Of a DNA stretch of 64,000 nucleotides, positions 3,129-64,000 are shown piece by piece; position 1 is the stretch's first letter; every line of letters begins with the position of its first letter. Under the pieces are notes generated by a model that was not told the origin of the DNA, made no database searches, and saw only the letters and a program-made list of their open reading frames with translations. The stretch lies in IMG/VR virus record IMGVR_UViG_3300045988_176686; one strand, 5' to 3'. The stretch comes from a virus. The translations under genes were made by a program, and so were the position numbers.

Positions 3129-3129
3129 C

Positions 3130-4235: not shown

Positions 4236-4264
4236 ATTAGGAACACATTAAATACTCTACTGCT

Positions 4265-17188: not shown

Positions 17189-17209
17189 TAGATTTACAAA
17201 AAACAAAGC

Positions 17210-22354: not shown

Positions 22355-22419
22355 CTTGTTTTTCGTATGCTCACGGGCAAAGTTACAAAAGGTCCTTTCG
22401 GTGGTACGGACAAAGTGTG

Positions 22420-36800: not shown

Positions 36801-37985
36801 TTAATCGAAGAGCATTGGCATACAAAGCGTGAGAACCTTGGGTGCCGGGTCATCAGCTGTAATCAGAATAGCTCGGTTGGGTTCTGAAAGCTGCATGCGC
36901 ACATTATCTGAGTCGATGGCGTTGAGTGAATCTTCTATACGACCTGCGTTCACACAAATACGGAATTGCTCATCGCATTGTGAGTCTATAATAAACACTT
37001 GATCGTCGGCGGCGGTTGAATAATCCACATCCTTTGCCGAAACATCAATGAACATACCGTTCTTGGTAAGCATAAGTCTGTTGTGATTCTTGTCACCAAA
37101 AATGCTTACACGCTTTATAATCTCGATCATTTCTTTCTTATTAAATGAAATATAGAAAGGATTGCCCATTGGGATAACCGACGCGTAGTTGGGATAAATT
37201 TTGTCGATAGACTTACAGATCAACTCAATGTCGTCGGCTGTAAATTTAAGTGTGTGTGTGTCGCTCTCAATCTCCACTACCTCGCAACCATCGAACACCG
37301 ACATGGTGCGGAAGAACATCGATGGCAAGAGCAAACGGCCGGGCTTACCTCCTTTAAAGAACTCACTACCTCCATTTGCAGGATCGTTAGAATAAGTGGT
37401 TCGAATAAGGGTTTGTCCGTCTGTAGCCACGAAGTTAATGGTTGAACGATCTTCTAATACGTCCATGCAAAGGCAATTCATTTGAGGGCGCAACTCGTCC
37501 TTTGACGTAAAGTTTGCTGAGTGCGCAAGTACCTCATTGAAGAATGGAACCGGAAGTACAAGTTTTGTTGTATCACCCTTTGGTTCAATGAGCATAGGAA
37601 ATTCCGTACCATCGAGGAAGGGAATTGAAGCCTTACCCTCCTTGGTGTTGCCGTTGCTATCGGTGCAATAAGTGAGCGCAATGGTATTGCTATCCTTGTC
37701 GAAAATCATTGAGAGTGTGCAATCGGGCAAAGTAGCGAGGAAAGGAATAAAAGTTTTGATAGGCAAAGCAACGGGATCTTCGAACGTGCCTTCAAACAAG
37801 GTTAAAGGTGCGGGAATGGTGAGCTGCGAACTGCTGGATGCCGAAATGAAGTAGAAGTTGTTTTCGCCCTTGCAAGTAAGTAACACATTGTCGAGAATGG
37901 CCAACGGGTTTTTACTGGCAATACACTTTGAAGCCTTGCATAAGGCAGTGTGAAGGGCTTTAGATGATTGAGCTTGAAGTTTCAT
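36801..37985 (-). CDS. dnaN: DNA polymerase III beta sliding clamp
   Basis: 394 aa; KALHTALCKASKCIASKNPLAILDNVLL, FVATDGQTLIRT, three-domain length. Confidence 0.75.
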   Translation of the reverse strand: MKLQAQSSKALHTALCKASKCIASKNPLAILDNVLLTCKGENNFYFISASSSSQLTIPAPLTLFEGTFEDPVALPIKTFIPFLATLPDCTLSMIFDKDSNTIALTYCTDSNGNTKEGKASIPFLDGTEFPMLIEPKGDTTKLVLPVPFFNEVLAHSANFTSKDELRPQMNCLCMDVLEDRSTINFVATDGQTLIRTTYSNDPANGGSEFFKGGKPGRLLLPSMFFRTMSVFDGCEVVEIESDTHTLKFTADDIELICKSIDKIYPNYASVIPMGNPFYISFNKKEMIEIIKRVSIFGDKNHNRLMLTKNGMFIDVSAKDVDYSTAADDQVFIIDSQCDEQFRICVNAGRIEDSLNAIDSDNVRMQLSEPNRAILITADDPAPKVLTLCMPMLFD

Positions 37986-38657: not shown

Positions 38658-41600
38658 TTAGAAGGGTAAATCCTCCTCTTTGATTTGAGCAACCGATTGG
38701 GCGACTTGGTTTTCGTTATTGCTTATGACTATTCGTTTGCCTTGCTTGCGCGACATGAAGTTGTCCCAACGGGTTTGTTCTTCGTCGGTGAGCTTCACAA
38801 TTTTGCCATCTTCATCGCGACAGGGCAAAAGGTCGGGTTGTTCAGCAAACTTACGCGCAATGCTTTTGAGTTCTTTGTAGTCCTTGGGTACTTTATCCTT
38901 ACCAGGTCGGTAGAAGAAGAACACATGCTTTGACGTTTGCAAGTAGCGAATGTATTTAGGCGAAACGGTTTTGTCGTTTTCCCACTCGCGACCCACAAAG
39001 TACTCTTGTGTGACCCATGCTTGCAACTTGAAACATTTGCGGTGCTTATCAGCATCGTTCTCAAAGAGGTGCTTGGGGTTGCAAGTAATGCCCATGTTCT
39101 CGCAATAGTCGTAAATCTTCTTTTTAAAAGTGGCTCGGCTATACTCTTTCGATTTTCCTTCGCTGGCATCTGCCCAGTTGCGAAGAAAGTCGTTAAACAT
39201 CTCGTCCGTGCAAATGGGTACACCATAAATCTCCGACTGAGAGAAGAACCATTCAAAGTAGTTCACAATATTCTCGGTGAGTTTCTGAACCATTTGTCGA
39301 CGGCGCACATTCTCTTGCGGTGCAATAGCAAAGGTGTGGTAACGCATAAGGAACTGAACCGCCAAAGCACAGATATATATAATCTGATTGCGGTCTGTGT
39401 CGGACAAGTCTTCGGGGTTTTTACTGAACCCTTTCATCAGATCGCTCATCATGCGTGCCGGTTGTCGCTTTTGTGGATTCTCACGTGCAAATCGGTTGGA
39501 GAAGCTAACTAAAGGAAATCGTCCGATTGTAGACGAGGCATCATCCGACAACGGATAGTTAGACGTGATAACATGCAGAGGCGAGTCCTTCATTTTAAAG
39601 GAAACAGCATCGCTATTCTTTCGCTCAGCACTCGTTCCACCCGTTATCTGCACATAGAAATAATCCAATGGAAAACTTCTCGGTTTGTCTTCCCAGTGAA
39701 CCACTCTGAACTTACCAGGGTATTTGATGATGTCTGTAAGGACAAATCGCGCATCGCCAATATCCTTAAAATGTCGCATATCAACGCTAAACACATTAAC
39801 GGCAGCACCGACGAAAGTATTTATCACCCACGACTTACCCGAACCACCCGTAGCCTGCTTCTCATCTGGAATAGAGTCCTCGAGCAGATATGGGCAGACG
39901 TTCTCCATCTTGTCCCATGTTCGGAAGCAAACACGACCTATTCCTGAAATCAGGTTCACAAAATGACTATTGATAACCGCTATGTCATCCTCGGACATCT
40001 GTTGCTTTTTACGGATAGAGTCTTGTTCCTTCTCCCACAAGGTGTTGGCACAACCGCGAATGATACGCAATGAAGGCCACAAGTCCTGCTCACGCTTGCC
40101 ATTCCAATCTACCTGCCAACGGTATGTCTGCGCCCATTCAGCAAGTTCAGCTTTCATTTGTCCCACCTCGATGATAGAGAACACAGGCGAATCATCCTCG
40201 TTGCGCATCGCCTCTTTTGCCTCAATGGACTTCTTCTTATCAATATACTCCTGACTCTCCCTTATCGCAAATGGAGGCTTGAATACACGCATCGTGAAGT
40301 CGTAGGGTTTGCGAGCTAAGGCAGGAATAAAAAAGTTGATGTTGTCGTAATTGACAGGTATTATAGCATCGGGCGTAATCTTCAGAGCCATATTGCGGAA
40401 GTAGAAATATTCCGTCTTGGCATTAAAAGCATCGGCAAAATCAATCACCATAGACAGTAAACCACCTGCACTCTTCTCGGTAAAAGTCTTATCTACCATG
40501 TTGGCACAGTCCGACATAAGGCGTTGCTCGAGGTCGTTGTGTCGCCAACATTGTTCAATAAATTCCAGCAACAAATTCTTCATAGCCTGAATGATACTGT
40601 TGCTTTCTATATATTCCACAAAGCAACGGTCGAGGTGAATGTACTGTCCTACAAGGTCGGTGCTTTCAGGATCTATCATGCGGTAATATCCGTGTGCCGA
40701 CATAAAGAGCCAAACCTTAGAAGGTGATACCTTGCAAGTAGGTGGCTTAGGTTTGCCACTTCGCGGATCACGCGGATATTCAATTTCAAATGGGTCGGTG
40801 TTCTTTGCGCCACGCAAACGCGAGTAGAGTGGTATGCGAAGGTCGTGGTCGAACTTAAAATTATCCTCGTCGGTCATGCGGTAGGCTATCATGTAATCGC
40901 GCACAGAACGAGGTGAGCAACCATATAACCATTGCCAACGCTGATTGTAACGTGAGCGGAAGGCTTCTGGCAACATAGCATAGAATAAGTCGCTATATTT
41001 AGTTGCAATCGCTCCGCAATCACGTTGACTGGCAATATCATTTGGGTAAAGCATAATGATACGCTCAGCAAAGCGTTTCATCTTTTGATATTGTATGGCG
41101 TTGAAGTCAAGTTTCTCTTGTCGCCATTGTCCGCGGTCGATATAAAAGAAATTTCTTCTGCCTATGCTGAAGGCCACATGATACCAACAGAATTTTTGAA
41201 AATGCGGATCGTGCTCTTTGTCGATGCGAAGCGAACGCATGGCGTAATATACGCTAATGGCATCTTCTGGTGTGCGGCAGAACACGATGTTGCGAGCTTT
41301 TACGTCGGAAGGCTTTATTTTTTCTTGTTCCAAACGAAACGTTCCTTTCGGCTCGCCATCCTTAGTTTCGTTCTCCACCCAAATATCTCTTGTGTCGGAA
41401 TATTGCTCGTTCGGATCAAACTTATCAATGGCTGCATGTACGGCAGTGGATGCGCTATCGCGATTATCCATAGCGTAGGTAAAGACCTTATCGCCCATGA
41501 GCCAACGGCTAACCTTGCGCACACTGTGGTCGTCGCAAGTAGAAAAGACTATTGGGTCGCCTTTCATTGCCGGACGGAACAGACAACCACATGAACCTTG

Positions 41601-42347
41601 TGGTGCTATAACATCAGTAGCGAAGCAAACAAAAAGTGGATTCCACGGCGTGCCATAAATGACCTCGCTCACTTGCTTTCCTTCTCGCACTACGTTAGGT
41701 AGCGTAACACTATCAACGGCATAAATGCGGAAATCTTTGTTGAGCATGTCGGTGGAAAAGTCCTTGCCAAAACCAAAAGTAGGAATGCCTTTTACCAACG
41801 TGACCTCACAACCGAGTGCGGCAAGTTCTTGCGGATTAAAATCCATCTTAGGCATGAACGAGAAGGTGTCTATCGTCTGCGGTGCAATGGTGCGGTAGTC
41901 CATTTTGCCAAACAACATTGGGAACACCGCACGCGTTTCATCAGTGTCGCCATATACCCGAACCACCAAGTCTTTGCACAATCGCAACAAACTGGCTCCG
42001 TGCATAGGCAAATTGCGCATGGCAGCATAAAGTTCTAAAGTACCATAGCCTTGCTTGCCTGTTTTTGTACACATCCAGCGCACGGCTCCGTGCTTGGCTT
42101 GCGTATCGCCATCAACCCCTACCCCATTGTAAAGACCGCCACGCTCATCATTGTAGATAATGAAGTGCGGTGTCTTTCCTGCCTTTGCCTTATCGTCGGT
42201 CGGGACATCGGCATCCTCGGTCCCCTTCTTTTGGCAGAAGGGACAGAAACACGCGGTCTGACCTTCAAAATGCTGTTCCTCGGCTGGCTTCACAAGGTAA
42301 GTCAGCGGGAGGTTTGCAAGACGATTGATAATTGGGTGGAATTGCAT
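38658..42347 (-). CDS. DNA primase-helicase fusion (zinc finger + Toprim + P-loop D5/P4-like)
   Basis: 1229 aa; CFCPFCQKKG...PHFII zinc finger, FCRTPEDAISV and LYPNDIASQ Toprim-like, Walker A ATGGSGKSW; ends ...EEDLPF. Confidence 0.65.
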   Translation of the reverse strand: MQFHPIINRLANLPLTYLVKPAEEQHFEGQTACFCPFCQKKGTEDADVPTDDKAKAGKTPHFIIYNDERGGLYNGVGVDGDTQAKHGAVRWMCTKTGKQGYGTLELYAAMRNLPMHGASLLRLCKDLVVRVYGDTDETRAVFPMLFGKMDYRTIAPQTIDTFSFMPKMDFNPQELAALGCEVTLVKGIPTFGFGKDFSTDMLNKDFRIYAVDSVTLPNVVREGKQVSEVIYGTPWNPLFVCFATDVIAPQGSCGCLFRPAMKGDPIVFSTCDDHSVRKVSRWLMGDKVFTYAMDNRDSASTAVHAAIDKFDPNEQYSDTRDIWVENETKDGEPKGTFRLEQEKIKPSDVKARNIVFCRTPEDAISVYYAMRSLRIDKEHDPHFQKFCWYHVAFSIGRRNFFYIDRGQWRQEKLDFNAIQYQKMKRFAERIIMLYPNDIASQRDCGAIATKYSDLFYAMLPEAFRSRYNQRWQWLYGCSPRSVRDYMIAYRMTDEDNFKFDHDLRIPLYSRLRGAKNTDPFEIEYPRDPRSGKPKPPTCKVSPSKVWLFMSAHGYYRMIDPESTDLVGQYIHLDRCFVEYIESNSIIQAMKNLLLEFIEQCWRHNDLEQRLMSDCANMVDKTFTEKSAGGLLSMVIDFADAFNAKTEYFYFRNMALKITPDAIIPVNYDNINFFIPALARKPYDFTMRVFKPPFAIRESQEYIDKKKSIEAKEAMRNEDDSPVFSIIEVGQMKAELAEWAQTYRWQVDWNGKREQDLWPSLRIIRGCANTLWEKEQDSIRKKQQMSEDDIAVINSHFVNLISGIGRVCFRTWDKMENVCPYLLEDSIPDEKQATGGSGKSWVINTFVGAAVNVFSVDMRHFKDIGDARFVLTDIIKYPGKFRVVHWEDKPRSFPLDYFYVQITGGTSAERKNSDAVSFKMKDSPLHVITSNYPLSDDASSTIGRFPLVSFSNRFARENPQKRQPARMMSDLMKGFSKNPEDLSDTDRNQIIYICALAVQFLMRYHTFAIAPQENVRRRQMVQKLTENIVNYFEWFFSQSEIYGVPICTDEMFNDFLRNWADASEGKSKEYSRATFKKKIYDYCENMGITCNPKHLFENDADKHRKCFKLQAWVTQEYFVGREWENDKTVSPKYIRYLQTSKHVFFFYRPGKDKVPKDYKELKSIARKFAEQPDLLPCRDEDGKIVKLTDEEQTRWDNFMSRKQGKRIVISNNENQVAQSVAQIKEEDLPF

Positions 42348-42791: not shown

Positions 42792-43454
42792 TTATTGCTC
42801 GTGATTGGACAAACAACTGACGTACTTCATCATTTGCCAAGTATTATGAATGCTTCTTTTGCAATCATACAAGGGGTCGTGTGCAGCACCTGGTGCTTCG
42901 TAAGCGTCTACCAAGTCATAAGCCTTGTCGGGTGTAAACTCTGCACCAGACATTTTGCATATTTGAGCTACACTCTCCATGAAGAATGTGCGGTGGTCGC
43001 GGAAGTTTTGATGACTGATGGGAATTTCGATTTGGTATTTATAGCAAATGTTTCGCAAAATAGCCATGTCGTAATCTGTACCTTGACACCAAAGATTTAC
43101 CTCGGTTGCTTTACATGCTCGTTTCACATAGTCGATCCAGCAGAAGAAGTCTTTCATTACTTCTTGAATAGGAGAGCAAGGCGAACCCTCGTTATCCTCG
43201 TCCAATACCGCGGCTTTGGCTTCGTCGCTACGTTTTGACCACCATTTAGCGGTGGTAGCATCGAACGTAAAGCCATCTATAAACATTCCGCGTAAGTCTA
43301 CATGCTCTGAAAACATGGGATAAACGATTGGTTTTCTTTCGTCAAAAAATGGGGTATCTTCTCCATTTCGATTCCACGCAACTGCCCCAATGCTCATGAC
43401 AGCAGCTGTGGGGCGTAGCGAACAAGTCTCTAAGTCGAAGGTTATATCAATCAT
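42792..43454 (-). CDS. DEDDh 3'-5' exonuclease
   Basis: 220 aa; Exo I FDLET, Exo II GTDYDMAIL, Exo III HDPLYDCK. Confidence 0.7.
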   Translation of the reverse strand: MIDITFDLETCSLRPTAAVMSIGAVAWNRNGEDTPFFDERKPIVYPMFSEHVDLRGMFIDGFTFDATTAKWWSKRSDEAKAAVLDEDNEGSPCSPIQEVMKDFFCWIDYVKRACKATEVNLWCQGTDYDMAILRNICYKYQIEIPISHQNFRDHRTFFMESVAQICKMSGAEFTPDKAYDLVDAYEAPGAAHDPLYDCKRSIHNTWQMMKYVSCLSNHEQ

Positions 43455-45392: not shown

Positions 45393-45692
45393 CTATTTAG
45401 CTCGACAATAAATGACGGGTTCTCCGCATTCGTCATTACGCATTTTAAAACCGCGCATTTCAAGTTCTTGCAGGTAGAGCGACAAGGGGTCGCCCAACGG
45501 ACAAACCACGGCTTTAAAATAAGTGCGTAATTGGTAATCGGTAAACACATCGCAATCTTCCGTCCAATGGTCCTGCGGTTTGTACTGATTGCAAAATGCT
45601 TGTATTTTAGATGGAATTACAAAGTCTTGCAGCGTAACCTCTGCTTTTTCGCTGACTTCATAATCTTGTTGGTGTCTCTTGCTCATAATCAC
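45393..45692 (-). CDS. hypothetical protein
   Basis: 99-aa ORF. Confidence 0.55.
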   Translation of the reverse strand: MIMSKRHQQDYEVSEKAEVTLQDFVIPSKIQAFCNQYKPQDHWTEDCDVFTDYQLRTYFKAVVCPLGDPLSLYLQELEMRGFKMRNDECGEPVIYCRAK

Positions 45693-46279
45693 TAATGTTT
45701 TTTGTCATACTGAAAAGCCCATATCAACAAGCAAAAGAACACGACCATTAAAAGGATTCCCTTTGCTCTCCCCCACCCTATTATTGGTTTTATGTTCGAG
45801 GTGTTTTTTTCAGCAACATTGTTGATACTATCATGCTTCGTCAGGGACTTTTCGTTGGCATTTAAATTGTTTTTTCTTTCACGGCTCAAACTGTCTATGT
45901 ATTGTTTCAATGATTGTACTTGATGAAGGAACGAGCCATCAACTTGTGCTTGTTTGGCACGATTACCCTTGCGCTGAATGGTGCGATTAGTCTTGATGGT
46001 TTTATTACCCTCAGTGTCGTAGGTTTCGGTAATTTGCTCCGTAATGGTTTCTTCGCTTGTGTCGGTTTCGCAAACGTCTGCCGAAAAATGTGTGCTATCG
46101 GTTAGGGTGGTGGTTGTGGAACCTTTCTGCACCTCTACCACCTTTGCGCTATCGGCAATAGACAAGGAGGTGCTATCCTCAGTAACGGTTGACACATGAT
46201 GCTCTGTTGTGCGTGATGAAACACAAGCAGTGAATAAAAAGACGGACAATAACGTCAAGAATGAAATTGTTTTGTACAT
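45692..46279 (-). CDS. lipoprotein with C-terminal membrane helix
   Basis: 195 aa; signal plus lipobox LFTAC; Thr/Ser-rich; C-terminal hydrophobic helix. Confidence 0.6.
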   Translation of the reverse strand: MYKTISFLTLLSVFLFTACVSSRTTEHHVSTVTEDSTSLSIADSAKVVEVQKGSTTTTLTDSTHFSADVCETDTSEETITEQITETYDTEGNKTIKTNRTIQRKGNRAKQAQVDGSFLHQVQSLKQYIDSLSRERKNNLNANEKSLTKHDSINNVAEKNTSNIKPIIGWGRAKGILLMVVFFCLLIWAFQYDKKH

Positions 46280-46339
46280 ATTCGTTTTGTTTTAAATGAT
46301 AGGGCAAAAATAAGGCATTCATGGCGAAGGGTACGGACA

Positions 46340-46379
46340 AACACAAAACACCGCACTACCCTTGCGGATAATGCGGTGT
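46340..46379 (-). terminator. rho-independent terminator
   Basis: Stem ACACCGCA/TGCGGTGT followed on minus strand by TTTTGTGTTT, 26 nt after stop at 46405. Confidence 0.6.
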
Positions 46380-46404
46380 AATTGAAAAGAACAGATTTTA
46401 TTCG

Positions 46405-47205
46405 TTATTTTTTACGCCAGCCCCAACCCCTTTGTGCGTTCTCCTCAGAGAAAAACTCTATCGAATCATCATTTCGCACATAAATGAATGAATGCTGCTG
46501 CGTGTTGGGATGAAGGAAATGGGTAAAGGTTACATGCCCATTCTTTGTTGTATAAGTGGTTGTAAAGTCTACACCTTCACTCTCGGCTACGAACCTAACA
46601 TTTCCTTTTTTATTGAGCGTTATAGTGAAGCCGACGGGTGTATTTTCTCTATAAGCAGTCATTTCCCATGTACCATGTAGGGCTTTGTCGTGAGCAGATG
46701 CGTCGGTGTAGTCTGTAAAAGTGCGTTTTTTAGCCCCATATTCTTCAGTATGTTCCAAATAGTGGGTTTCACCAATAGAATCCGTACAGGTTACTCGGTC
46801 TACATTACTCGCAAGATCGGTCACAGTGAGCGTCCCGTAAAGTCGGTTATTTATATTAGGCTCTTTATACGTTCCAACCGTAAACGTGGTTAAAAGGTTA
46901 TCTCCAGCCGTATTCCATGTTCCGAAATAATAAACATTATCGTAAGTAAGCATACCTGAGACTAATTTACCCGAACTACTAAAACTCATTACAAGGTGGT
47001 TGCGAAAGAATGAATATTGGGTATCAGTTTTATCCATAAAATTGTTTTTAAAAAACCACCGTTTGCCATACAGATAGTTTTCGATTGCTATGGGGTTAAC
47101 ACCATTAGCCCCGTCTCCATCGCCACTGCAAGAGGTTAAGCCTACACACAAGCCTATACTTACCAATATGGCCATAGCACTATTTATTAGATACTTCCTT
47201 GTCAT
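46405..47205 (-). CDS. lipoprotein
   Basis: 266 aa from ATG 47205 (track GTG 47241 overlaps rep); lipobox GLTSC. Confidence 0.6.
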   Translation of the reverse strand: MTRKYLINSAMAILVSIGLCVGLTSCSGDGDGANGVNPIAIENYLYGKRWFFKNNFMDKTDTQYSFFRNHLVMSFSSSGKLVSGMLTYDNVYYFGTWNTAGDNLLTTFTVGTYKEPNINNRLYGTLTVTDLASNVDRVTCTDSIGETHYLEHTEEYGAKKRTFTDYTDASAHDKALHGTWEMTAYRENTPVGFTITLNKKGNVRFVAESEGVDFTTTYTTKNGHVTFTHFLHPNTQQHSFIYVRNDDSIEFFSEENAQRGWGWRKK

Positions 47206-47227
47206 GTATTTTCTATTTTCAAATGTT

Positions 47228-48421
47228 CTACTTAACACCACGCACTAAAACGCGAGCGGCAGCCTTTCCTATAAAGCTTGCTAAGGTACGCATCATCTTG
47301 TCGTACTCATTTTTGTTTGCAGGCTTTTCGCATTCGGCATTAAAACTTTCGAGCGTCTGTTTATCGTCAAAACGAATTGACATAAAACCTGCTGCATTCG
47401 CTCCATAATGTTTTGCTTTTAAAAGCCAAGGTTTGAAGAAGCCTTCATATTGCGCTAAGAACTTATTCCACTCATCAGCATATTTTCCAGGGTAATCCTC
47501 AATAATGGGTTCTTGTCGTTTCTTTTCTTCTTCTTGTTTAGCAAAAAGTGATGATTGATAAGCTTCAGGATTGGTGGCTTTCTGCATTTCGTCTATTGTG
47601 CCGTAGATATTGAAACGAATGAAAGCCGGGTTGCCCACTTTACGTTTGCCATTGTAGACAGGTTCAAAACTTACGCACACATCAAGCAAACCCTTTCGTT
47701 TTAAACGGTTGATGTCATCAATGCTTGTTTCAATTACCTTTTTGCGAAATTGCGAATACTTAGGATAAGCCTCTTTCAGCACACGTCCGTCTGCCCAAGT
47801 AATCATGCCAAGGTATTCCTTAATTTTGTTTACGGTAAGGTCTACGGTGCGCTTGTTCCATTTATGCCCACTACTTACGCGCAACAAATAGTAAATCATG
47901 GGCATGCGCTCCACTTCACCAATTAGAGCTATATTGTCGGGATGCGACACATAATCTTGCGACATATCAAACACGCGGTCAACCACATCGGGGTTAAGTC
48001 CAAACACCACACCTGTATTATTGTCAGACGACATGGAACCTTGCGTAAATACATTGTATTTTATCATCGCATCCTTGCCATTCTCATCTTTGCCTGGTGC
48101 ATCTACTTGTATTTTCAACACCTCCTCTACGGCTTTCGCTGCCGAATAGTAATTGTTGATGGAAACACCTAACTCAGCATAGGAGATACTGAATTGCAAA
48201 ATACCCGAATTTTTTACAGCTTCAGAAAATAAGCCTCTTGGAACCTTTTTAGATTTGCATAAATCAGATCCAAAAAATTCTTTGATATAAGGTTGCAAAT
48301 GTTCTGATACCTTTACCAACACGGCTTGTTGCAAGAGTGTAAGATTTTTGCTGATCCTTGTATAAGAGAATGGCGTGTTTATCCAATTCGATTGTATTAT
48401 ATCTTTACTATCCATGACCAT
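47228..48421 (-). CDS. plasmid replication initiator (Rep_3/RepB-like)
   Basis: 397 aa; IIQSNWINTPFSYTRISKNLTLLQQAVLVKV and a second winged-helix-like half (YSQFRKKVIETSIDDIN); iterons begin 17 nt upstream. Confidence 0.7.
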   Translation of the reverse strand: MVMDSKDIIQSNWINTPFSYTRISKNLTLLQQAVLVKVSEHLQPYIKEFFGSDLCKSKKVPRGLFSEAVKNSGILQFSISYAELGVSINNYYSAAKAVEEVLKIQVDAPGKDENGKDAMIKYNVFTQGSMSSDNNTGVVFGLNPDVVDRVFDMSQDYVSHPDNIALIGEVERMPMIYYLLRVSSGHKWNKRTVDLTVNKIKEYLGMITWADGRVLKEAYPKYSQFRKKVIETSIDDINRLKRKGLLDVCVSFEPVYNGKRKVGNPAFIRFNIYGTIDEMQKATNPEAYQSSLFAKQEEEKKRQEPIIEDYPGKYADEWNKFLAQYEGFFKPWLLKAKHYGANAAGFMSIRFDDKQTLESFNAECEKPANKNEYDKMMRTLASFIGKAAARVLVRGVK

Positions 48422-48437
48422 TTTTGTTTAGTCAGCA

Positions 48438-48918
48438 GGTAAAGTGATACTAAAATAGTTTACCTGCTTAGTACCTATTTAGGTAAACTGGTACTAAAGT
48501 AGTTTACCGCGCAACTTCCTAAACTGTTGATTTTCAGTGATTATACACCCACCTATAATATAAATATAAAGAGAAACATATTTTTTCCTATATTCTTTAT
48601 ATTAAATAAGAAGGGTAAACTACCTTAGTAAATAGGTAAACTACTTTAGTACCAGTTTACCTGTTTTATTGCATTTGGGTAAACTACCTTAGTACCTGTT
48701 TACATTTTGCACTTTTAGGTAAACTACTTTAGTAGCAGTTTACCTTACTTATTCTTCTATTAGAAAAACTCATAAGGTAAACTGCTACTAAAGTAGTTTA
48801 CCTTACTTATTCTTCTATTAGAAAAACTCATAAGGTAAACTGCTACTAAAGTAGTTTACCTTACTTATTCTTCTATTAGAAAAATTCATGAGGTAAACTG
48901 CTACTAAAGTAGTTTACC
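48438..48918. repeat. iteron array / candidate oriV
   Basis: 27-bp element GGTAAACTGCTACTAAAGTAGTTTACC or variants at 48438, 48482, 48614(half), 48635, 48678, 48718, 48776, 48834, 48892; AT-rich block 48540-48612. Confidence 0.8.
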
Positions 48919-48960
48919 TTCTCCATTCGTGTGATTTTCTACGAACGCGATAACAACAAG

Positions 48961-49524
48961 TTAAAGATCATCATAGTTCTTATTCTCGCTTTTCTTAAAA
49001 TTCTCAACATCGCCATAGAACAGACTGATGAGATATTTTCTTTGAAGAATGCCATCTGGTCTTATTAACTTCTGCATAATAATGCCTAACATTTTCTTTT
49101 CTTCAGCGTCAGGCACATAGAATTGAAAACCTTCTGGATCGCCATCACTATTCTTCAGTACATCAACAACGGCCTTGGAGTATTTCTCCTTTAACTGTTT
49201 TAGGATGTTAGCAAATGGTGTTTTTGCCAATTCGAGAGAAGAATAATCCATAGAGACTTCCACCGCAAACACGTTTTTGTCTTTAGGATTAAAGAATATC
49301 ATGAACTCAGAGTCCTCACCCATGAACAAACCTTTATATATTTTCACGCCAGAAGGAGAAGCCTTTGTTTTAGCTACATCACAAGTAAGACCTTTAGCTT
49401 TCAACTTCTGCGTAAACAACTCTACGTTGCCATTCAAGGGAATGCCCATGAATTTCATGTGTGTCTGTCCTTGCACAATCATGCAGAACAAAGACAGCAA
49501 TAAGGTAACTATTGTCTTTTTCAT
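48961..49524 (-). CDS. secreted hypothetical protein
   Basis: 187 aa from ATG 49524; signal peptide MKKTIVTLLLSLFCMIVQG. Confidence 0.6.
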   Translation of the reverse strand: MKKTIVTLLLSLFCMIVQGQTHMKFMGIPLNGNVELFTQKLKAKGLTCDVAKTKASPSGVKIYKGLFMGEDSEFMIFFNPKDKNVFAVEVSMDYSSLELAKTPFANILKQLKEKYSKAVVDVLKNSDGDPEGFQFYVPDAEEKKMLGIIMQKLIRPDGILQRKYLISLFYGDVENFKKSENKNYDDL

Positions 49525-49537
49525 TGTCGTATAGAAT

Positions 49538-49921
49538 TTAGTCGTTCTTATGCTTATCCACGAACTCAATAACTGCTTGCAATGCCAAGTCGCGAATAGG
49601 TATGCCCGTTCGCATTTTCATGAGCGTAATGCGTTCGTAGTATTCCATGGGGACTGAAATGGTAATGCCGTTCTCAGACTTCTTAGGACGCGCCTTACTA
49701 ATTGGTGCAGCGTTTGAAAATGAAGTAGTTTGCGCTGGTGTTGTCTGCTCTTGCTGTGGCTGAACGGGCGCCATTGCTTGCTGCTGAACATCTGTGGTTG
49801 GTTGGGTTACTTGTTGCTCGGTTGCGGTTGTTGGATTATTTAATATACGTTCATTCTCTGCCACAACGGGAGAGGCTTCAAGATTGAATGGTGTGAACTT
49901 GCGTTCTTGTTTTCGTGCCAT
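49538..49921 (-). CDS. ribbon-helix-helix partition/centromere-binding protein candidate (ParG-like)
   Basis: 127 aa; Q/T/P-rich N-terminus; C-terminal ITISVPMEYYERITLMKMRTGIPIRDLALQAVIEFV fits RHH; directly downstream of parA. Confidence 0.5.
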   Translation of the reverse strand: MARKQERKFTPFNLEASPVVAENERILNNPTTATEQQVTQPTTDVQQQAMAPVQPQQEQTTPAQTTSFSNAAPISKARPKKSENGITISVPMEYYERITLMKMRTGIPIRDLALQAVIEFVDKHKND

Positions 49922-49955
49922 GTCAGTGATTGTTTATAGTCATTATAACGAGTGA

Positions 49956-50828
49956 TTATTCGGGCATGCTTTCAAGTATCTCTTCTGTAAACTTCTTATA
50001 GTCCAGCCCTACCCTACTATAAGGTGCATACGTAAAGATGTCCTCGTTCATAGCCTGCGCTTCTACCATCTTGGTATCTCTGCGCGTATAGGCATCGAAC
50101 ATGTAGTCATCAAACTTCTCGCCTAAATATTGTTTGAACTGCTTGGTCGCATTGGTTTGGTCGTTACTCATTACCATCAACAAACCGCGAATATCAAGGT
50201 TAGGATTTAGATCCTCGCGTGTTTCCTTCACTGCATTGATGATTTCAGCAATACCTTTGGTGGCCAGCATCTCCAACTGCACCGGCAATACCACACTGGT
50301 GGCAGCGGTCAGCGCATTGTGTGTGAGCAATGACATGGCCGGAGGACAATCTATCAGCACATAATCAAATGCTTCGGTCACATTCATTGTACCTTCATCA
50401 GCCAACTCGGTACCTTGCATCTCTATTAAAGGTTTACCCAACAATTTACAAAGTGCTTTGCGTGGCACCGCCATTTGGTTTAGGAATGGTTCTATGCCTA
50501 TTAATCGTCCTGATGCCGGAGCAAGGTATATGCCCTCTCGCACTTGATATACGGGGATTTGCCCTTGTTGTACCAGGGCATCATACATAGTCGGCTTGCC
50601 CATTTGCTGTGTTTCGCTCCAACCAAAGAGGAATGAAGCACACGCCTGTGGGTCAAGGTCGATAATCAATATACGCGGAACGCGTCTCTTCCCTTCTACG
50701 TCTACACCAAAGAAACCTTTACCGAACCGACGTAAACCGGTTGCAAGGTTCTGCACTGTTGTGGTCTTGCCTACCCCACCTTTGTGGTTGACGAAGGCAA
50801 GCACTTCTCTGAGTCTTTCTGTTGCCAT
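49956..50828 (-). CDS. parA: ParA/Soj-family partition ATPase
   Basis: 290 aa; deviant Walker A NHKGGVGKTT, Walker B YVLIDCPP. Confidence 0.9.
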   Translation of the reverse strand: MATERLREVLAFVNHKGGVGKTTTVQNLATGLRRFGKGFFGVDVEGKRRVPRILIIDLDPQACASFLFGWSETQQMGKPTMYDALVQQGQIPVYQVREGIYLAPASGRLIGIEPFLNQMAVPRKALCKLLGKPLIEMQGTELADEGTMNVTEAFDYVLIDCPPAMSLLTHNALTAATSVVLPVQLEMLATKGIAEIINAVKETREDLNPNLDIRGLLMVMSNDQTNATKQFKQYLGEKFDDYMFDAYTRRDTKMVEAQAMNEDIFTYAPYSRVGLDYKKFTEEILESMPE

Positions 50829-50847
50829 AAATCCAAGTATTAAAAAG

Positions 50848-51150
50848 TTTAATTGTTCGTTTGTTCAAATGTTCAAACAAACAATTAAACATTTGAACAA
50901 ACAAATATTCAAACAAATGAATATTTGTTTCTTGCTGCAAATTTAAGATTTGTATATTACACCACAAAACAAAACGTTCATTTATTTATATAAACAATCA
51001 AATAAACATTAAAACAAATGAACAAATATACGTTTCAACGAACATACAAATAAACAAACGTGTAATTGAATAAATATTTGAATGTTCAAACAAACAAATA
51101 AACAAATACACAAATGTTCATTTGTTGAAATGTTTGTTTGTTCATTTCAA
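50848..51150. promoter_or_regulatory. repeat-rich region upstream of parA (candidate centromere, operator and promoter)
   Basis: About 11 TGTTCA/TGAACA motifs; 13-bp perfect IR AAACAAATATTCA/TGAATATTTGTTT (50899-50930); -7 box TAAATTTG on minus strand at 50938-50945. Confidence 0.5.
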
Positions 51151-51161
51151 TAAATAAACAT

Positions 51162-51707
51162 TTAATTATTCCATTTGTCGTTTACATCAATCGTTATTTT
51201 GTCAGTTTGGCTATTTAATAGTTCAGTACGTATAGGCAAAATGCAGTAATTTGTTTTCATTCCAGCCTTCACGATTGTGCCATTCGGTACGTACGTGTAG
51301 TAGTTTCCCGTGCCGAAAAGTTTTGAGCCTATTTGTGTCTTTCTGTCCGCTGGAGTGTCGTAGCACAGAATGCGTTGCCCACTTTGCCAATATCCTTCAG
51401 GTAGAGAGATATTTCGCAAAACGGCAAAAACTTCTAATTTCGTAGGCATTCTATAATGAGGGTCTTCTATCAGTTTCGATGGAGTGGGGGAGGTTGAGAG
51501 CATGACGTTACATATCTCCGTACAAGACAGGTAAAAGCGAGCTGTATCATTGGTGGCTATCAATGTATCAACCTTTGCAGCATCATTACCAGGCAATGAG
51601 GGGGTGGTGTCATCTATATCTTTTGGAAAATCCAGCTCTCCACATCCAAACACCGAAAGCAGAATAAAAATAGGATACGAAAAAAAACAGTGATTATTTT
51701 GAGCCAT
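51162..51707 (-). CDS. lipoprotein
   Basis: 181 aa; lipobox SVFGC; YRMPTKLEVFAVL loosely DUF1566-like. Confidence 0.55.
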   Translation of the reverse strand: MAQNNHCFFSYPIFILLSVFGCGELDFPKDIDDTTPSLPGNDAAKVDTLIATNDTARFYLSCTEICNVMLSTSPTPSKLIEDPHYRMPTKLEVFAVLRNISLPEGYWQSGQRILCYDTPADRKTQIGSKLFGTGNYYTYVPNGTIVKAGMKTNYCILPIRTELLNSQTDKITIDVNDKWNN

Positions 51708-51788
51708 ATAACGTAAAGAATGAAAAAGAGCGCACTGACTATATGATTATGATGGCACTATATAGCCAGTGCAATTCCTTGCAAATGA

Positions 51789-52745
51789 TTAAATGTTTAT
51801 GTCATAGCCTGTATCGTCCCAAGCATCATTGAGTGAAATGGAAAAACCTTGATTGTGGTTGTAGAACGATCCGGTAATGGTAGTTGTCTTGTTACGCTCG
51901 AAGTGTACATTCGGTACGGTTATCGATGAATAGGGCGTTCCTGATTTACTGTTGGTGGTAAAAGTAATGTCCGTTGTATAGCCATCAGCAGGCACCATCA
52001 CGTAATAAGTGAGTGTAGTGCCGGTAGTACCAGCTAACGACGAAACGTCCGTGGTACGCTGATTTTTCATGGCGTTCATCACGTCGAATGTCTGTAAAGA
52101 GAAATCTTTATATTCTTGAAATGAAGCGTCCCATGTGCTGCAATCCGTTGGAAAAACATCTGTACTTTTTACAATCATACGAGCCACTAAACGATCCAGT
52201 GTAAGATTTACCATTTGTGCTTCGCCGATCCCCACCACAATGTCACGTTGTGCGCCAAAGGTGTCTGAGGTCTTAGCAGAAGAAAGGAGGGCAGGGATAG
52301 TTGCACCCGAAACAGGTGTAAGCACGTTGGCAGGTAACTCCCATGATGCCGAGGTCGCATCCAATAGAGTAGGGGAGGTGCTTCGCGTAGCTATCACTTT
52401 TAGTGTGTGTTCGCCATAATCGAGCATCAAATCAGGTTCAGCAAAATCTGCTGCCGTGCTCGTTTGGTGCAGCACCTGTAACAATTTACCAGACTTCTTG
52501 TCGTAGTCCATAATGTAAAGGTCGGTCAACTCTGTGCCATTTGCCGTGAGGGTAGCTCGCGAATGTGGCGCAGCATGGTGCAACGTCAATCCATTACTCG
52601 TGCCACACTTCAAGCGTACATGCGCTTTGCCGTGGGTAGGCTGATTAGTCACTAACTCTGTAAAAGAGCCTTCGTTGTCGTTTGAACATGATGCACTCAT
52701 GCAAAGAGCCATTATTGCAATGACCGCAAAAAATAAATTTCTCAT
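51789..52745 (-). CDS. lipoprotein
   Basis: 318 aa; signal plus lipobox MSASC; beta-rich Thr/Ser composition. Confidence 0.6.
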   Translation of the reverse strand: MRNLFFAVIAIMALCMSASCSNDNEGSFTELVTNQPTHGKAHVRLKCGTSNGLTLHHAAPHSRATLTANGTELTDLYIMDYDKKSGKLLQVLHQTSTAADFAEPDLMLDYGEHTLKVIATRSTSPTLLDATSASWELPANVLTPVSGATIPALLSSAKTSDTFGAQRDIVVGIGEAQMVNLTLDRLVARMIVKSTDVFPTDCSTWDASFQEYKDFSLQTFDVMNAMKNQRTTDVSSLAGTTGTTLTYYVMVPADGYTTDITFTTNSKSGTPYSSITVPNVHFERNKTTTITGSFYNHNQGFSISLNDAWDDTGYDINI

Positions 52746-52798: not shown

Positions 52799-54592
52799 TT
52801 AGGGTAATAGGGGAGGAGGTAAAGAGAAGGTATGCACATTCTTTTGTGTCGATCGTCCGCTACTTGCCGGCATGCGCTTGTTTTGTACGTTCGTGTGACA
52901 AGCCACACCACACCGCCTCACAATCAGCAAAGGATAGTTTATAGGTTGTAGCACGGATAATGGCACAGATCGCACAATACATGGCTTTTCGGTGTGGTTT
53001 TCTTCCGCACATACATTCACAGTTGGCTTTGCTGTTTCCGTTTCCGCACATACATTCACCACTTGCTCTGCTGTTTCCTTGCATACATTCACCTGTGGCT
53101 TTTCGTTCGCTACTGCTTCCGTAGATTGTTCCTTCACCTTCAAAGTTTTATTGAAAAGTTTTTCCAATTTTACGCCCTCCCTATAAAAGAACGCGCAGCC
53201 ACGATAACTATTCGACTTGTTGCGTTTCTCTTCAGGCATGAAAGTTTTACAAAAACCCGATAACGTGTAGGTATTGCCTTCAAACGATACCTTATTGTCA
53301 TCTACCGCAACAACCTCCTTGCCATCTACAAAGGTTAGTTTGTCACCAGACTTCACCCCTATTGCTGCAAAGGTAAATTTGCGCGAAGGGTCAACTTGCT
53401 TTACCGTTGTGGGCTTATCTACTTTTTTAGCAACAGTCTTTTTTGCCGTAGAATCCTTGCTCGATACAACCTTAGTAGTACGTTTCACATTTAGTACGTA
53501 ACGCTCTAAAACATTTATATCACATTCCACGTTAGGAGCTACTAACACATCGTCCACATGCTCACCCACAAAGGTTTGGTCTTCTTCAACCTTTGGGCAT
53601 AAAACATACACATTGCCGTTATTGTCAACTGCTTCTACATATTTACTGTCTTCTGTACCTAAATACAAGCACATGCTTTCGGCTTTTTTGATTATACCAA
53701 ATCGCTCAGCATCAAACAATAAGCAAAAACTATGCTTCAACTCCTTGCCTGCCTCTACTTGCGCTTCACAATCACCTGCTTTAAATTGAATGGTATTGTC
53801 GCCACGTTTACCACAAACGACAATATTCTCTCCCTTACCCATTTTTACAAGTTTGCAAATAGTCTTCCAGTTGGAGACATTCACGCACAATTCAGACGAA
53901 CGCTCCACACAAACGGAGTACCATTTTACTAAAACGCATTCGTGCTTTGCACGTGCAGCAATACCTTCAAACATAATATTGGTGCAAACATCATAGTCCA
54001 TGCGTTCTTTCGTCGCGGTCATTTGGTAAATATTCTTACCTTTCATTTTCGCGCACATTTTCTTAAAGTCTGCTGCCAAAATGCGCATACCCGAAGTGTC
54101 ACCCTTTATATTACTAAAAGCAACAGGACACACTTTCATACTACGGCCATTTGTAGCGACTAAGCATTTACGCTTGGCATCAATGAAAATAAAAGCATAA
54201 GCCGGATTCCAGAACTTAGGGTCGGTAAAATCGCACAACTCTCCCAACTCCTTAGTGACGGCAAAGGTTACACTGGCTTCTACCTCACCTTTGTTTTCAG
54301 CCACGAACAAATGGCGTTTACTGCCCACACCTACCAATAACTCGAATTTTGCCACAAGATCGAAAATTTGGTTTGTTGGGAATGCACAACGGAAATTGCC
54401 TACCTCCACATGGTGCAAATTGTTAGCGTCCTCTCTTTCAAAAAACATATCATTACCCATGTGTTTTGGTGAATTAATCTCACGTGCTGTAAAACTACCC
54501 ACAACGTCGTATCTACGCATCAATGGCCAAACCTCGTCCGCTATCTTGTACAGTTCATTCAATATAGCCGTATTCAATTCTTTGTCAGTCAT
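52799..54592 (-). CDS. large protein with beta-clamp-like central region and VNVC repeat tail
   Basis: 597 aa from ATG 54592; CLVATNGRSMKV and LLFDAERFGIIKK...YVLCPK resemble DnaN domain signatures; three VNVC[AK]E repeats near the C-terminus. Confidence 0.55.
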   Translation of the reverse strand: MTDKELNTAILNELYKIADEVWPLMRRYDVVGSFTAREINSPKHMGNDMFFEREDANNLHHVEVGNFRCAFPTNQIFDLVAKFELLVGVGSKRHLFVAENKGEVEASVTFAVTKELGELCDFTDPKFWNPAYAFIFIDAKRKCLVATNGRSMKVCPVAFSNIKGDTSGMRILAADFKKMCAKMKGKNIYQMTATKERMDYDVCTNIMFEGIAARAKHECVLVKWYSVCVERSSELCVNVSNWKTICKLVKMGKGENIVVCGKRGDNTIQFKAGDCEAQVEAGKELKHSFCLLFDAERFGIIKKAESMCLYLGTEDSKYVEAVDNNGNVYVLCPKVEEDQTFVGEHVDDVLVAPNVECDINVLERYVLNVKRTTKVVSSKDSTAKKTVAKKVDKPTTVKQVDPSRKFTFAAIGVKSGDKLTFVDGKEVVAVDDNKVSFEGNTYTLSGFCKTFMPEEKRNKSNSYRGCAFFYREGVKLEKLFNKTLKVKEQSTEAVANEKPQVNVCKETAEQVVNVCAETETAKPTVNVCAEENHTEKPCIVRSVPLSVLQPINYPLLIVRRCGVACHTNVQNKRMPASSGRSTQKNVHTFSLPPPLLP

Positions 54593-56270: not shown

Positions 56271-56708
56271 TTACTTCAGTTCTAACGATACACCAAGCGC
56301 ATCAGCAATCTTGTCCAGTACGTCAATTCCAACGGAATACTTTCCTTCCTCAACTCTGCATACATTTGCTTTGGTGATGTCGGCAGCTGTGGCGAGTTCT
56401 TGTTGTGTCATATCGCGTTGAAGTCGAATACTTTTTATACGTTTTCCAATAGCGGAACGTATTCCGCGATTTTCGCGTTCACACGCAAACGATAAATCCG
56501 AGTAGAAGTCTTGCAGCTCCTCGTCGCTTGATTGAGAGAATAGCTCGTCAAACAGATCCGCCAACTTGCTACCGCCATAATTGTAGCATTGATTGGCGTA
56601 ATCATCATACGGAATGTCTACAGACTGATCCCAGTTGTCCTTATTCCATGCAGCCACACATGCTACGCATTCTTTGATTATAGCTGCTTGTAAATTTGTC
56701 TTTTCCAT
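56271..56708 (-). CDS. XRE-family HTH protein with N-terminal extension
   Basis: 145 aa; C-terminal IGKRIKSIRLQRDMTQQELATAADITKANVCRVEEGK is an XRE-type HTH. Confidence 0.7.
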   Translation of the reverse strand: MEKTNLQAAIIKECVACVAAWNKDNWDQSVDIPYDDYANQCYNYGGSKLADLFDELFSQSSDEELQDFYSDLSFACERENRGIRSAIGKRIKSIRLQRDMTQQELATAADITKANVCRVEEGKYSVGIDVLDKIADALGVSLELK

Positions 56709-63129: not shown

Positions 63130-63185
63130 AAGTTTGTATATTTTGGGGGAGTAAAAAAAATCAGTGATAAAATTGTAGGCTATAA

Positions 63186-63452
63186 TTAGAAGATCCAGTT
63201 TTCCGCACCATTGATGCGATCTACGAGTCGAACACCAGGGCGACAAAGGTCCAGCACTTCGACGGCGGCCCAATAGGTAGGGCATACAACACAAGCGGAA
63301 GGACTCCCGACAACGGGGCCGCATACATTTACAAAAATCATGTAGCCGGAAGAAGTAAAGCGAATTTCGTGATAATAATCGCCCATCGCTGTGCGCTGCA
63401 TAAAAATCCATGTAGGGAGCGCGTTTTTTGTTTTAGGTTTGTAAGTTGCCAT
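63186..63452 (-). CDS. hypothetical protein
   Basis: 88-aa ORF with ATG just downstream of repeat copy 2. Confidence 0.45.
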   Translation of the reverse strand: MATYKPKTKNALPTWIFMQRTAMGDYYHEIRFTSSGYMIFVNVCGPVVGSPSACVVCPTYWAAVEVLDLCRPGVRLVDRINGAENWIF

Positions 63453-63575: not shown

Positions 63576-63799
63576 ATGCCCAACAGAGCAAAGCAAAGAT
63601 ATTGCGCACCCGTAAGCGTTACGGGGTCCTCGTCGTCGCCTGGGGTGAAGTTGTGCTTTGTTACGGCCCATTGTGCGGCCTTACGCATAGCTGACAAGGT
63701 AAAGCGTAAAACGCGAAGCAAAAGGAGCACAAAAGCGGCTAAAATAAGCATGCAAAGATCAACGCTCTTTGTTTGCTTTGTAATGTATGCTTTTTCCAT
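63542..63799 (-). CDS. small membrane protein (2 TM)
   Basis: 85-aa ORF, two hydrophobic helices. Confidence 0.5.
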   Translation of the reverse strand: MEKAYITKQTKSVDLCMLILAAFVLLLLRVLRFTLSAMRKAAQWAVTKHNFTPGDDEDPVTLTGAQYLCFALLGIVVVFVLSLKF

Positions 63800-63830
63800 T
63801 TTTTTAAAATTTAAAAAGGTCTATAAATTA

Positions 63831-64000
63831 TTATAGAAAGCTTAAACTATCGTTATTTATTTCTATTTCTTTAAGTTGTTCATTTAGCCCGTTTTCAGTC
63901 AAAACATTAAAAACGTTGTGCGCCTGTACCTCCGTTTCAACTAAAAACGGATCTCCCCCCATTGTTACAAGGGCCCCTATAACCTCATAAGGTTCTTTTA
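63831..64000 (-). CDS. hypothetical protein, C-terminal part (ORF enters from right edge)
   Basis: Open minus-strand frame from nt 64000 to TAA at 63833-63831 (...GALVTMGGDPFLVETEVQAHNVFNVLTENG...). Confidence 0.4.
   Translation of the reverse strand, partial: KEPYEVIGALVTMGGDPFLVETEVQAHNVFNVLTENGLNEQLKEIEINNDSLSFL

Follow-up and report, generated by a model that had tools for sequence, protein, structure and literature searches.

A plasmid-type replication and partition module in the genome of a tailed phage of Prevotella

Why would a tailed phage carry the replication and partition genes of a plasmid? The question is raised by a module of ~3.9 kb (47228-51161) in a 64,000-nucleotide stretch of DNA, hereafter the window, from IMG/VR virus record IMGVR_UViG_3300045988_176686. 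An earlier note on this DNA had described a Rep_3/RepB-like initiator with an iteron array and an AT-rich block directly upstream of it, a ParA ATPase, a small ribbon-helix-helix (RHH) protein and a repeat field, and had read the element as an episomal prophage. All five parts are present where that note had placed them. Along the minus strand, in the order of transcription, the repeat field (51161-50829) is followed by parA (50828-49956), a gene for a 127-aa protein (49921-49538), a 202-aa open reading frame (ORF; 49569-48961), the origin region (48960-48422) and rep (48421-47228). Judged from sequence comparison and predicted structure, the module is very probably a true Rep-iteron origin together with a ParA-adaptor-centromere partition operon. 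Its carrier is a tailed phage of ~98-101 kb, most likely with a Prevotella or Segatella host, and we think it fairly probable that this phage genome is kept as a circular, extrachromosomal, low-copy prophage, that is, as a phage-plasmid. The earlier proposal thus holds for the kit and for its residence in a tailed phage, whereas the step from kit to maintenance is one that we infer.

The Rep initiator and its iterons

Rep (47228-48421, minus strand; called two residues shorter in other records) is a 397-aa iteron-type initiator of the Rep_3 superfamily, with two winged-helix domains (WH1-WH2) in approximately the first 280 residues and an extra C-terminal domain at ~300-397. The Pfam evidence taken alone is thin, since only the Rep3_C model, which corresponds to WH2, matches (21.5 bits against a cut-off of 21.1; 2.9e-4); no NCBIfam model matches Rep, and a single-sequence search against the sequences of solved structures gave noise only. 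Three further lines of evidence settle its identity in agreement with the earlier note. By tblastn, Rep finds annotated RepB-family initiators on four circular Segatella/Prevotella plasmids, which are 22-33% identical to it across two thirds of its length. A family profile built from 44 diverse homologues matches the R6K initiator pi (2NRA) with an E value of 2.2e-9, in WH2 only. Finally, the AlphaFold2 model (pLDDT 91.8) shows the tandem winged-helix arrangement of Rep_3-superfamily initiators, and Foldseek pairs it with pi (2NRA), RepE54 (1REP) and the Rep-iteron-DUE complexes of 8AAN at a probability of 1.00 and target TM-scores of 0.64-0.72 over ~280 columns.

Between the 202-aa ORF and rep lie 539 bp of non-coding DNA (48960-48422) in which the motif GGTAAACT-N11-AGTTTACC, with up to two mismatches, matches eight times, all within 48438-48918, against 0.02 expected from shuffles of the window. 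The unit is a 27-nt near-palindrome with dyad symmetry that is present in both orientations, so the sites do not form a simple tandem array; an asymmetric core, TACTAAAGT, orients each copy and reveals a ninth half-site at 48614-48630. Moving toward rep, three distal copies (48776-48918) with an exact 58-bp period (TRF score 354, 98% matches) are oriented like the pair nearest rep. They are followed by three copies of opposite orientation at 48635, 48678 and 48718, spaced 40-43 bp apart, with the half-site completing this group (48614-48744). Next comes a 105-bp AT-rich block of 25.7% GC (48509-48613), a candidate DNA-unwinding element, and then two copies (48438-48464 and 48482-48508) that end 17 nt upstream of the rep ATG and, from their position, are a candidate operator for Rep autorepression. 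Eight sites and a half-site around an AT-rich block are the combination of clustered binding sites and AT-rich DNA expected of an iteron initiator, and they bear out what had been proposed for the DNA upstream of rep. By its layout the region reads as an iteron origin whose unit differs from the classical 17-22-bp direct repeat. An AT-rich spot at 63777-63886 was considered as a second origin and rejected, as no repeats were found there.

Comparison with relatives links the initiator to these repeats. We observed three Rep-iteron types, and the N-terminal part of Rep and the iteron type change together. In relative L008 the N-terminal 270 aa of Rep are 96-100% identical to those of the window and the iterons are as in the window, with 33-73% identity over residues 271-390 and a ParA that is 88% identical. 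In relatives L004 and L005 the N-terminal 270 aa are 43-76% identical and the last 120 aa 90-100%; the iteron there is GGTAAAATGACTACTAATGTTTTTTAC, in six copies mostly spaced 60 bp apart, and ParA is 99% identical. The third type, in relative L014, combines a 525-aa Rep (hhalign probability 100%, E 4e-62) with 22-bp iterons (beginning GTACACAAAAAGGGAGGTTT) in two opposed tandem arrays and a ParA of 84% identity. The L014 iterons lie at 18491-18865 of IMG/VR 3300030040_000144, directly before the gene for the 525-aa Rep, with no signal-peptide ORF between. Because iteron type tracks the DNA-binding half of Rep rather than the remaining genome, these sequences provide strong comparative evidence that Rep binds the repeats. 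Moreover, the Rep-iteron cassettes are swapped while ParA stays constant, which is the pattern that plasmid incompatibility would select for. Rep itself (47228-48421, compared with L005 and L008) is a mosaic: its N-terminal DNA-binding part and its ~100-aa C-terminal domain differ in history, which places a recombination point near residue 270.

The ParA operon and its repeat field

The parA gene (49956-50828, minus strand) encodes a Soj-like ATPase with the deviant Walker A motif KGGVGKTT, reported in the earlier note, at residues 15-22. The protein matches Pfam AAA_31 (3.9e-37) and CbiA (8e-13) as well as phrog_164, a ParA-like family (6.8e-45), and its residues 8-287 align with Soj (1WCV/2BEK; E 6e-29); the NCBIfam model ParA_partition also matches, at 1e-19, which is below that model's cut-off. 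Given that the Walker A motif begins at residue 15, there is no room for an N-terminal helix-turn-helix (HTH) or other DNA-binding domain, and a deviant Walker-A ParA of this build is what a type Ib system would be expected to have.

The next gene downstream (49538-49921, minus strand) encodes the 127-aa protein, a parG-like candidate centromere-binding protein. An alignment of 24 homologues resolves a basic N-terminal stretch of 27 aa, a variable P/Q-rich linker and a nearly invariant stretch comprising the C-terminal 45 residues. The N-terminus follows the pattern MARKQE.K...F.L..S....ENER (MARKQERK...), and M1, A2, R3, K4, Q5, E6 and K8 are invariant in the 24 homologues. AlphaFold2 predicts a C-terminal strand-helix-helix (~85-123; helices 92-105 and 109-123) with pLDDT >90 and a disordered linker. 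The protein belongs to no Pfam or NCBIfam family, and its profile gave noise only against the sequences of solved structures (PDB); when compared by hhalign, its C-terminal domain matches a small ORF that follows parA on a Segatella copri plasmid (probability 88%, E 2.9e-6). Of the earlier assignment, a small protein encoded downstream of parA, the ORF stands, and the predicted model makes an RHH fold for its C-terminus likely but not proven.

Upstream of parA, the proposed repeat field is clearly present as 333 bp of 21.6% GC (50829-51161, minus strand), with 11 copies of TTTGTTT/AAACAAA where 0.28 would be expected. These heptads, in both orientations, flank a promoter core, TAAATTTG, at 50938-50945 on either side. 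This core fits TAnnTTTG, the consensus of the Bacteroidota -7 promoter element; scanning the module for sigma-70 promoters yielded fewer matches than shuffled sequence did and is uninformative for a Bacteroidota host. Short repeats at the operon's own promoter are where a type Ib centromere would be expected, and we regard the field as a candidate centromere and par operator.

The operon is well conserved. Across all 16 of the fetched loci with a ParA, the protein is 77-99% identical, even where a primase-like marker protein of the phage is only 59-66% identical to that of the window, and the partition module appears to be under selection. All relatives with a ParA locus keep the promoter core TAAATTTGCA, with differing short repeats around it in distant ones. 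A short-repeat field lies upstream of parA in every relative examined, and the heptad is enriched in most of them, not all. The repeat unit changes where the partner protein diverges; L023, for example, has another unit and a small protein of only 33% identity.

Between the small par gene and the origin, the module also holds the 202-aa ORF (48961-49569, minus strand; 187 aa in other gene calls). It encodes a protein with a predicted signal peptide that matches no Pfam or NCBIfam family, it is missing at the corresponding position in the distant relative L014, and it is probably cargo, not part of the replication or partition machinery. It is one of five predicted signal-peptide or lipoprotein ORFs around the module, which lie within 45692-47241, 48961-49569 and 51162-52745 on the minus strand; among the flanking ones, the ORF at 46405-47241 has the lipobox LTSC, and one of the five has a weak match to DUF6562. 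These genes may be expressed during carriage.

The carrier phage, its map and its host

The module resides in a genuine tailed-phage genome. In the window, the tape measure protein of 1805 aa (phrog_25337, 2.3e-20) and YopX (1.4e-10) are confirmed as the earlier note had named them. Its holin-like gene gives a weak match that is above the Pfam cut-off, and its large terminase is a candidate with one weak match (phrog_2, 1.4e-4) and no Pfam match. The window also encodes a beta clamp (36801-37985), a DnaQ-like exonuclease (42792-43454) and a primase-polymerase-like protein. Between exonuclease and clamp lies a 1229-aa ORF (38658-42347, minus strand) that matches one unannotated PHROG and nothing in Pfam, NCBIfam or the PDB sequences; its position suggests a very divergent replicative polymerase. 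With rep at the head, exonuclease, 1229-aa ORF and clamp form a co-directional replication cluster. No phage-encoded helicase was found.

The 34 kb outside the window were rebuilt from a close relative, IMG/VR 3300029828_000005 (99,585 bp), with no mismatches between overlapping loci. They contain genes for guanylate kinase, ThyX, dUTPase, a head maturation protease, an endolysin, tail proteins and the reverse transcriptase of a diversity-generating retroelement (DGR). The DGR of this relative lies just past the right end of the window; its reverse transcriptase (phrog_1423, ~2e-52; Pfam RVT_1) is beside tail proteins (phrog_5302), at 7361-10359 of 3300029828_000005 and 943-4333 of locus L017. 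Phage structural, packaging and lysis genes therefore share one replicon with plasmid replication and partition genes, the combination by which phage-plasmids are recognised, and no conjugation or mobilisation genes were found among the non-module content of the window and the out-of-window sequence.

Other genes of the window include a Cro/CI-type HTH_3 regulator outside the module (56271-56708, minus strand; Pfam HTH_3 1.2e-12, PHROG repressor/regulator families; no peptidase domain), which is a candidate prophage repressor. A full-length LysR-family regulator (HTH_1 and LysR_substrate; 4265-5170, plus strand), found exactly in 51 collection blocks, seems unusual as phage cargo. At least four DNA methyltransferase genes (MethyltransfD12 Dam-like, phrog_799, phrog_67 and Dcm-like phrog_116) lie at 14403-15439, 16595-17980 and 31686-32999 and probably serve anti-restriction. 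A 718-aa protein (61255-63411, minus strand) has an LPD29 domain ('large polyvalent protein') and a weak DUF5710 match. In the early/accessory region, two pairs of small genes are paralogous by translation (20929-21546 with 28168-28767, and 23417-23953 with 28784-29557). Two tandem repeats were also noted, one of 39 nt (53003-53078) encoding a repeated VNVCAE... peptide in a 651-aa ORF, and one of 22 nt, TTCGCGCGAAACTTTGAAAATC, in 2.6 intergenic copies at 22300-22357.

The same arrangement recurs widely. Module gene order and flanking phage genes are repeated in IMG/VR contigs of 74-99.6 kb and in a 97,710-bp ENA contig, and the module with its immediate neighbours is also found in a 100,317-bp ENA contig from the Hadza. 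Independent IMG/VR and ENA assemblies have the same junctions on both sides, which shows that the module did not arise through mis-assembly. For the primase-like marker, IMG/VR contains 127 confirmed relatives, located on contigs of up to ~110 kb, and the longest recorded contigs of many Rep-family clusters measure 97.7-103 kb.

The phage map is circular. In a 101,243-bp relative bearing ParA and Rep, the 295-nt tail repeats the head with nine mismatches and one 27-nt indel, and another contig, 156677, runs uninterrupted from its match to the window's right end into its match to the start of 3300029828_000005, bridging the ends of the latter. The window itself is a slice of the larger genome and contains no terminal repeat. 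Three contigs (3300045988_175279, 3300045988_180979 and 3300029828_000005) begin at nearly the same genome position, ~13.3-14.7 kb from rep. Because contig 156677 crosses that point, the shared start is probably a recurrent assembly break, not a physical end; in other assemblies the break falls at different places, such as within the tape-measure gene.

Neither the window's ORFs of at least 100 aa (PHROGs on all 66, Pfam on 56 of the 66) nor the out-of-window ORFs tested yielded an integrase, recombinase, transposase or protelomerase. When three Bacteroidales integrases were searched by phmmer against 5654 ORFs from 3.2 Mb of family loci, the one match was on an unrelated 5-kb fragment. Scans for tRNA genes and Rfam families found none in the window. 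As expected of a phage-plasmid, neither integration machinery nor a chromosomal junction was seen, within the detection limits of a divergent lineage, and the earlier note, which had likewise seen no integrase or recombinase in the window, is upheld. Exact-protein look-ups returned 87 collection blocks for a Rep variant, 51 for the LysR regulator and 47 for a DUF7841 gene, none of them on a contig >200 kb; the Hadza contig, NODE_692, is by SPAdes numbering preceded by 691 contigs at least as long in its assembly.

The host is most likely Prevotella or Segatella, in line with the Bacteroidota host proposed earlier. A search of GTDB genomes with Rep gave no match, and the primase-like marker was used in its place: it is on eight contigs of metagenome-assembled genomes (MAGs), five of the eight classified as Prevotella and the others as Bacteroidales, Paludibacteraceae or unnamed bacteria, all of them at most 94.5 kb long. 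In nr a fragment of Rep carries the name Prevotella sp. Outside phages, the closest homologues of Rep (31%) and ParA (36%), together with a small ORF following parA, are all on one closed circular Segatella copri plasmid, NZ_CP137558.1, whose source study described large extrachromosomal elements in closed Segatella genomes of this species complex (PMC10635906).

Proposed carriage as a plasmid and comparison with known systems

We favour the reading that the phage is carried as a plasmid on several grounds. The partition system is conserved and would be of little obvious use to a purely lytic phage. Cassette exchange resembles that driven by incompatibility, and the kit is shared with resident plasmids. 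In addition, integration machinery is missing, lipoprotein and LysR cargo surrounds the module, and contigs are binned with host genomes; the Prevotella MAG binning and the circular map are indirect hints of vertical, plasmid-like inheritance. Rep and ParA homology was found, an integrase was not and neither was a chimeric assembly, so that wherever the earlier note's reading could have failed in silico the outcome favoured it.

In such a phage-plasmid, Rep would bind the 27-nt iterons through its two winged-helix domains, and the flanking arrays would load it around the 105-bp AT-rich block, leading to melting. A host helicase would then be recruited, and the phage's primase-polymerase-like protein, DnaQ-like exonuclease, beta clamp and 1229-aa protein may join. 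Through the two iterons before the rep ATG, Rep would repress its own expression, and the opposed arrays could pair between copies ('handcuffing') and so limit copy number. For partition, dimers of the small RHH-like protein would coat the heptad field at the par promoter, both forming the partition complex and repressing the operon. Its invariant basic N-terminal peptide would stimulate the ATPase of nucleoid-bound ParA, and ParA would separate sister copies at cell division.

Several observations weigh against this reading, some concerning the module and others the lifestyle. Among the family models to which the earlier note had looked for confirmation, AAA_31 and CbiA recognise ParA and Rep3_C recognises Rep, but the N-terminal Rep_3 model of Pfam is silent on Rep and no Pfam RHH model matches the 127-aa protein. 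With no Pfam or NCBIfam family to place that protein, the RHH assignment comes from its AlphaFold2 model, for which the top Foldseek matches are the RHH proteins MatP, PutA, Arc and CopG, all at E >1 and not significant. The origin holds only two-mismatch matches to the DnaA box TTATCCACA, none of them convincing; a DnaA box is not universal in iteron origins, and lack of one does not bar membership. The sole lysogeny-type regulator is the Cro/CI-type HTH protein, which has no cleavage domain. No toxin-antitoxin module was found in the PHROGs and Pfam scans of the window or by Pfam on ten small on-strand ORFs, nor did the window scans find a multimer-resolution recombinase; toxin-antitoxin modules and resolvases are common in well-studied low-copy plasmid prophages. 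Many structural proteins have no detectable family, and with such detection limits in a divergent lineage a very divergent recombinase is possible. Rep heads the replication cluster and no second initiator or origin was recognised, so the origin could serve lytic replication only. Finally, a virulent, circularly permuted phage would account equally well for the circular map, the uniform ~100-kb contigs and the lack of host junctions, and the plasmid state is deduced from sequence.

Several of these observations belong as naturally to a virulent phage, or one in a transient carrier state, in which the Rep-iterons would be the lytic origin and ParA with the small protein would act during infection by positioning or regulating genomes. 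The place of rep, the lack of a second recognised initiator, the toxin-antitoxin module, resolvase and cleavable repressor not found in the window scans, and the complete circular contigs all suit that account, as do the many DNA methyltransferase and nucleotide-metabolism genes. Benler et al. make an equivalent caveat in their passage on 'Flandersviridae' (PMC8008677). This account has more difficulty with a complete operon of centromere-like field, ParA and adaptor that is conserved at 77-99% across the family, and with Rep-iteron specificity cassettes that are exchanged beside an unchanged ParA, as expected from plasmid incompatibility. It also leaves aside that Rep, ParA and the small protein all have homologues on resident Segatella plasmids, that lipoprotein and LysR-type cargo lies around the module and that contigs are binned with Prevotella MAGs; on balance we consider it rather unlikely.

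An ordinary integrating temperate phage is improbable. Its integrase would have to be too divergent to detect, as might be imagined in a lineage with many proteins of no detectable family, or to lie in the ~400 bp at the start or 4.7 kb at the end of the reconstruction relative that were outside the scans, and that 4.7 kb corresponds to window sequence. PHROGs, Pfam and phmmer found none in the window, the out-of-window 34 kb and the 3.2 Mb of relatives, no tRNA gene was found, the exact proteins (47-87 blocks each) never occur on contigs >200 kb, and the MAG contigs stay within 94.5 kb. More improbable still is a plasmid joined to a phage by mis-assembly, or a plasmid with a defective prophage: nothing specific speaks for either, the junctions are identical in independent assemblies, which refutes mis-assembly, and the content beyond the module covers phage replication, packaging, head, tail and lysis. 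A linear N15-type plasmid prophage with hairpin telomeres, which the shared start of contigs 175279, 180979 and 000005 might suggest, can hardly be entertained given that neither PHROGs nor Pfam finds a protelomerase, that contig 156677 crosses the shared start, that other assemblies break elsewhere and that one relative has overlapping ends.

Extending the phage-plasmid reading, we tentatively suggest, with less than even confidence, a large, globally common family of Prevotella/Segatella phage-plasmids in which one Rep-iteron origin serves both maintenance and, with the phage replisome, lytic growth, and in which incompatibility drives cassette exchange among co-resident phages and Segatella elements; a major share of the 'free' Prevotella phage DNA in gut metagenomes would then be intracellular plasmid prophage. 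In many human guts, non-industrialised ones in particular, Prevotella and Segatella predominate; to our knowledge only a small number of their phages have been cultured, and genetic tools for these hosts are scarce. If the phage-plasmid reading is true, 'viral' gut contigs of ~100 kb would be read as carried replicons instead of lytic bursts, and Bacteroidota would gain a clear, kit-complete phage-plasmid case. The 3.9-kb rep-ori-par cassette, for which three or more iteron specificities occur naturally, would then be a candidate basis for stable, mutually compatible Segatella vectors. Should the lifestyle be otherwise, the module would still be the well-defined origin of a common gut phage family. 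No description of this Prevotella phage family or its rep-par module came up in literature searches, and its nearest relative in the databases is a Caudoviricetes record, metagenome-derived and unannotated, in which Rep is labelled only 'DNA REPLICATION protein'.

In its replication half, the module resembles R6K pi, mini-F RepE and pPS10 RepA in its two-winged-helix fold, in the repeated sites and AT-rich block upstream, and in the sites beside the start codon. It differs in that Rep has only ~12-14% identity to the solved iteron initiators, which are without its ~100-aa C-terminal domain, a domain that recombines independently here. Classical iterons are 17-22-bp direct repeats in helical phase, whereas those of the window are 27-nt dyad units, 40-58 bp apart and in both orientations; the 22-bp iterons of the relative L014 resemble the classical systems. 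The partition half is closest in plan to TP228 ParF-ParG and pSM19035 delta-omega, with a short deviant Walker-A ParA devoid of an N-terminal HTH, a small partner encoded downstream whose N-terminus is basic and probably flexible and whose C-terminus is a predicted strand-helix-helix, and short repeats arrayed in both orientations about the promoter of the operon. Omega binds heptad arrays of this arrangement. By sequence the ParA here is closer to chromosomal Soj (E 6e-29) than to delta (E 8e-9) or ParF (E 1e-5), and its partner, for which heptad binding is putative, has a long P/Q-rich linker and no sequence match to ParG, omega or the Pfam RHH families.

As a whole, the element recalls P1, N15 and SSU5, tailed phages of the ~100 kb kind that combine a plasmid-type initiator with ParA-based partition and have no integrase. 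The resemblance is one of concept only, the sequences being unrelated: GenBank phages gave no near-identical DNA for 40000-64000 and no protein-level match to Rep. Partition here is type Ib-like, unlike that of P1 and N15, which have a type Ia ParA with an HTH, plus ParB. Further differences are that no Cre/lox-like resolution, addiction module or protelomerase was found here, that the host phylum is Bacteroidota and that the lifestyle is deduced from the genome. The Segatella copri elements NZ_CP137558.1, NZ_CP137560.1 and NZ_CP085934.1 carry Rep homologues of 28-33% identity and likely share the host clade; unlike the element described here, they have no phage genes and carry integrases, transposases, mobilisation genes and metabolic cargo.

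The earlier note's remark that its author knew of no well-characterised phage-plasmids in Bacteroidota proved overstated, and ours is not the first such proposal for the phylum, because crAssphage and a branch of 'Quimbyviridae' were proposed earlier (PMC10983915, PMC7969092, PMC8008677). Pfeifer et al. (2021) counted Bacteroides among the clades in which phage-plasmid detection likely under-counts (PMC7969092). For an integrase-less branch of 'Quimbyviridae' infecting Bacteroidetes, Benler et al. (2021) proposed RepA-mediated episomal replication (PMC8008677). As described in that source, these too are gut Bacteroidetes phages, with Prevotella among their hosts, some with DGRs, with a RepA-like winged-helix protein and no integrase; compared by description only, they differ in having ~75 kb genomes and a DnaB helicase beside RepA, and the passage on them mentions no partition genes or iterons (PMC8008677). 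The abundant ~100 kb gut Bacteroidales phage crAssphage (Carjivirus communis) is likewise without an integrase and has been proposed to be extrachromosomal; a 2021 study marked it as a singleton phage-plasmid (PMC7969092), and in 2024 culture data were used to argue that it is one (PMC10983915). It belongs to a separate phage lineage, and the element described here has a tape measure and a DGR. Whereas crAssphage has the evidence from culture, our element, known from sequence alone, presents the kit explicitly, with initiator, iterons, ParA, adaptor and centromere-like repeats.

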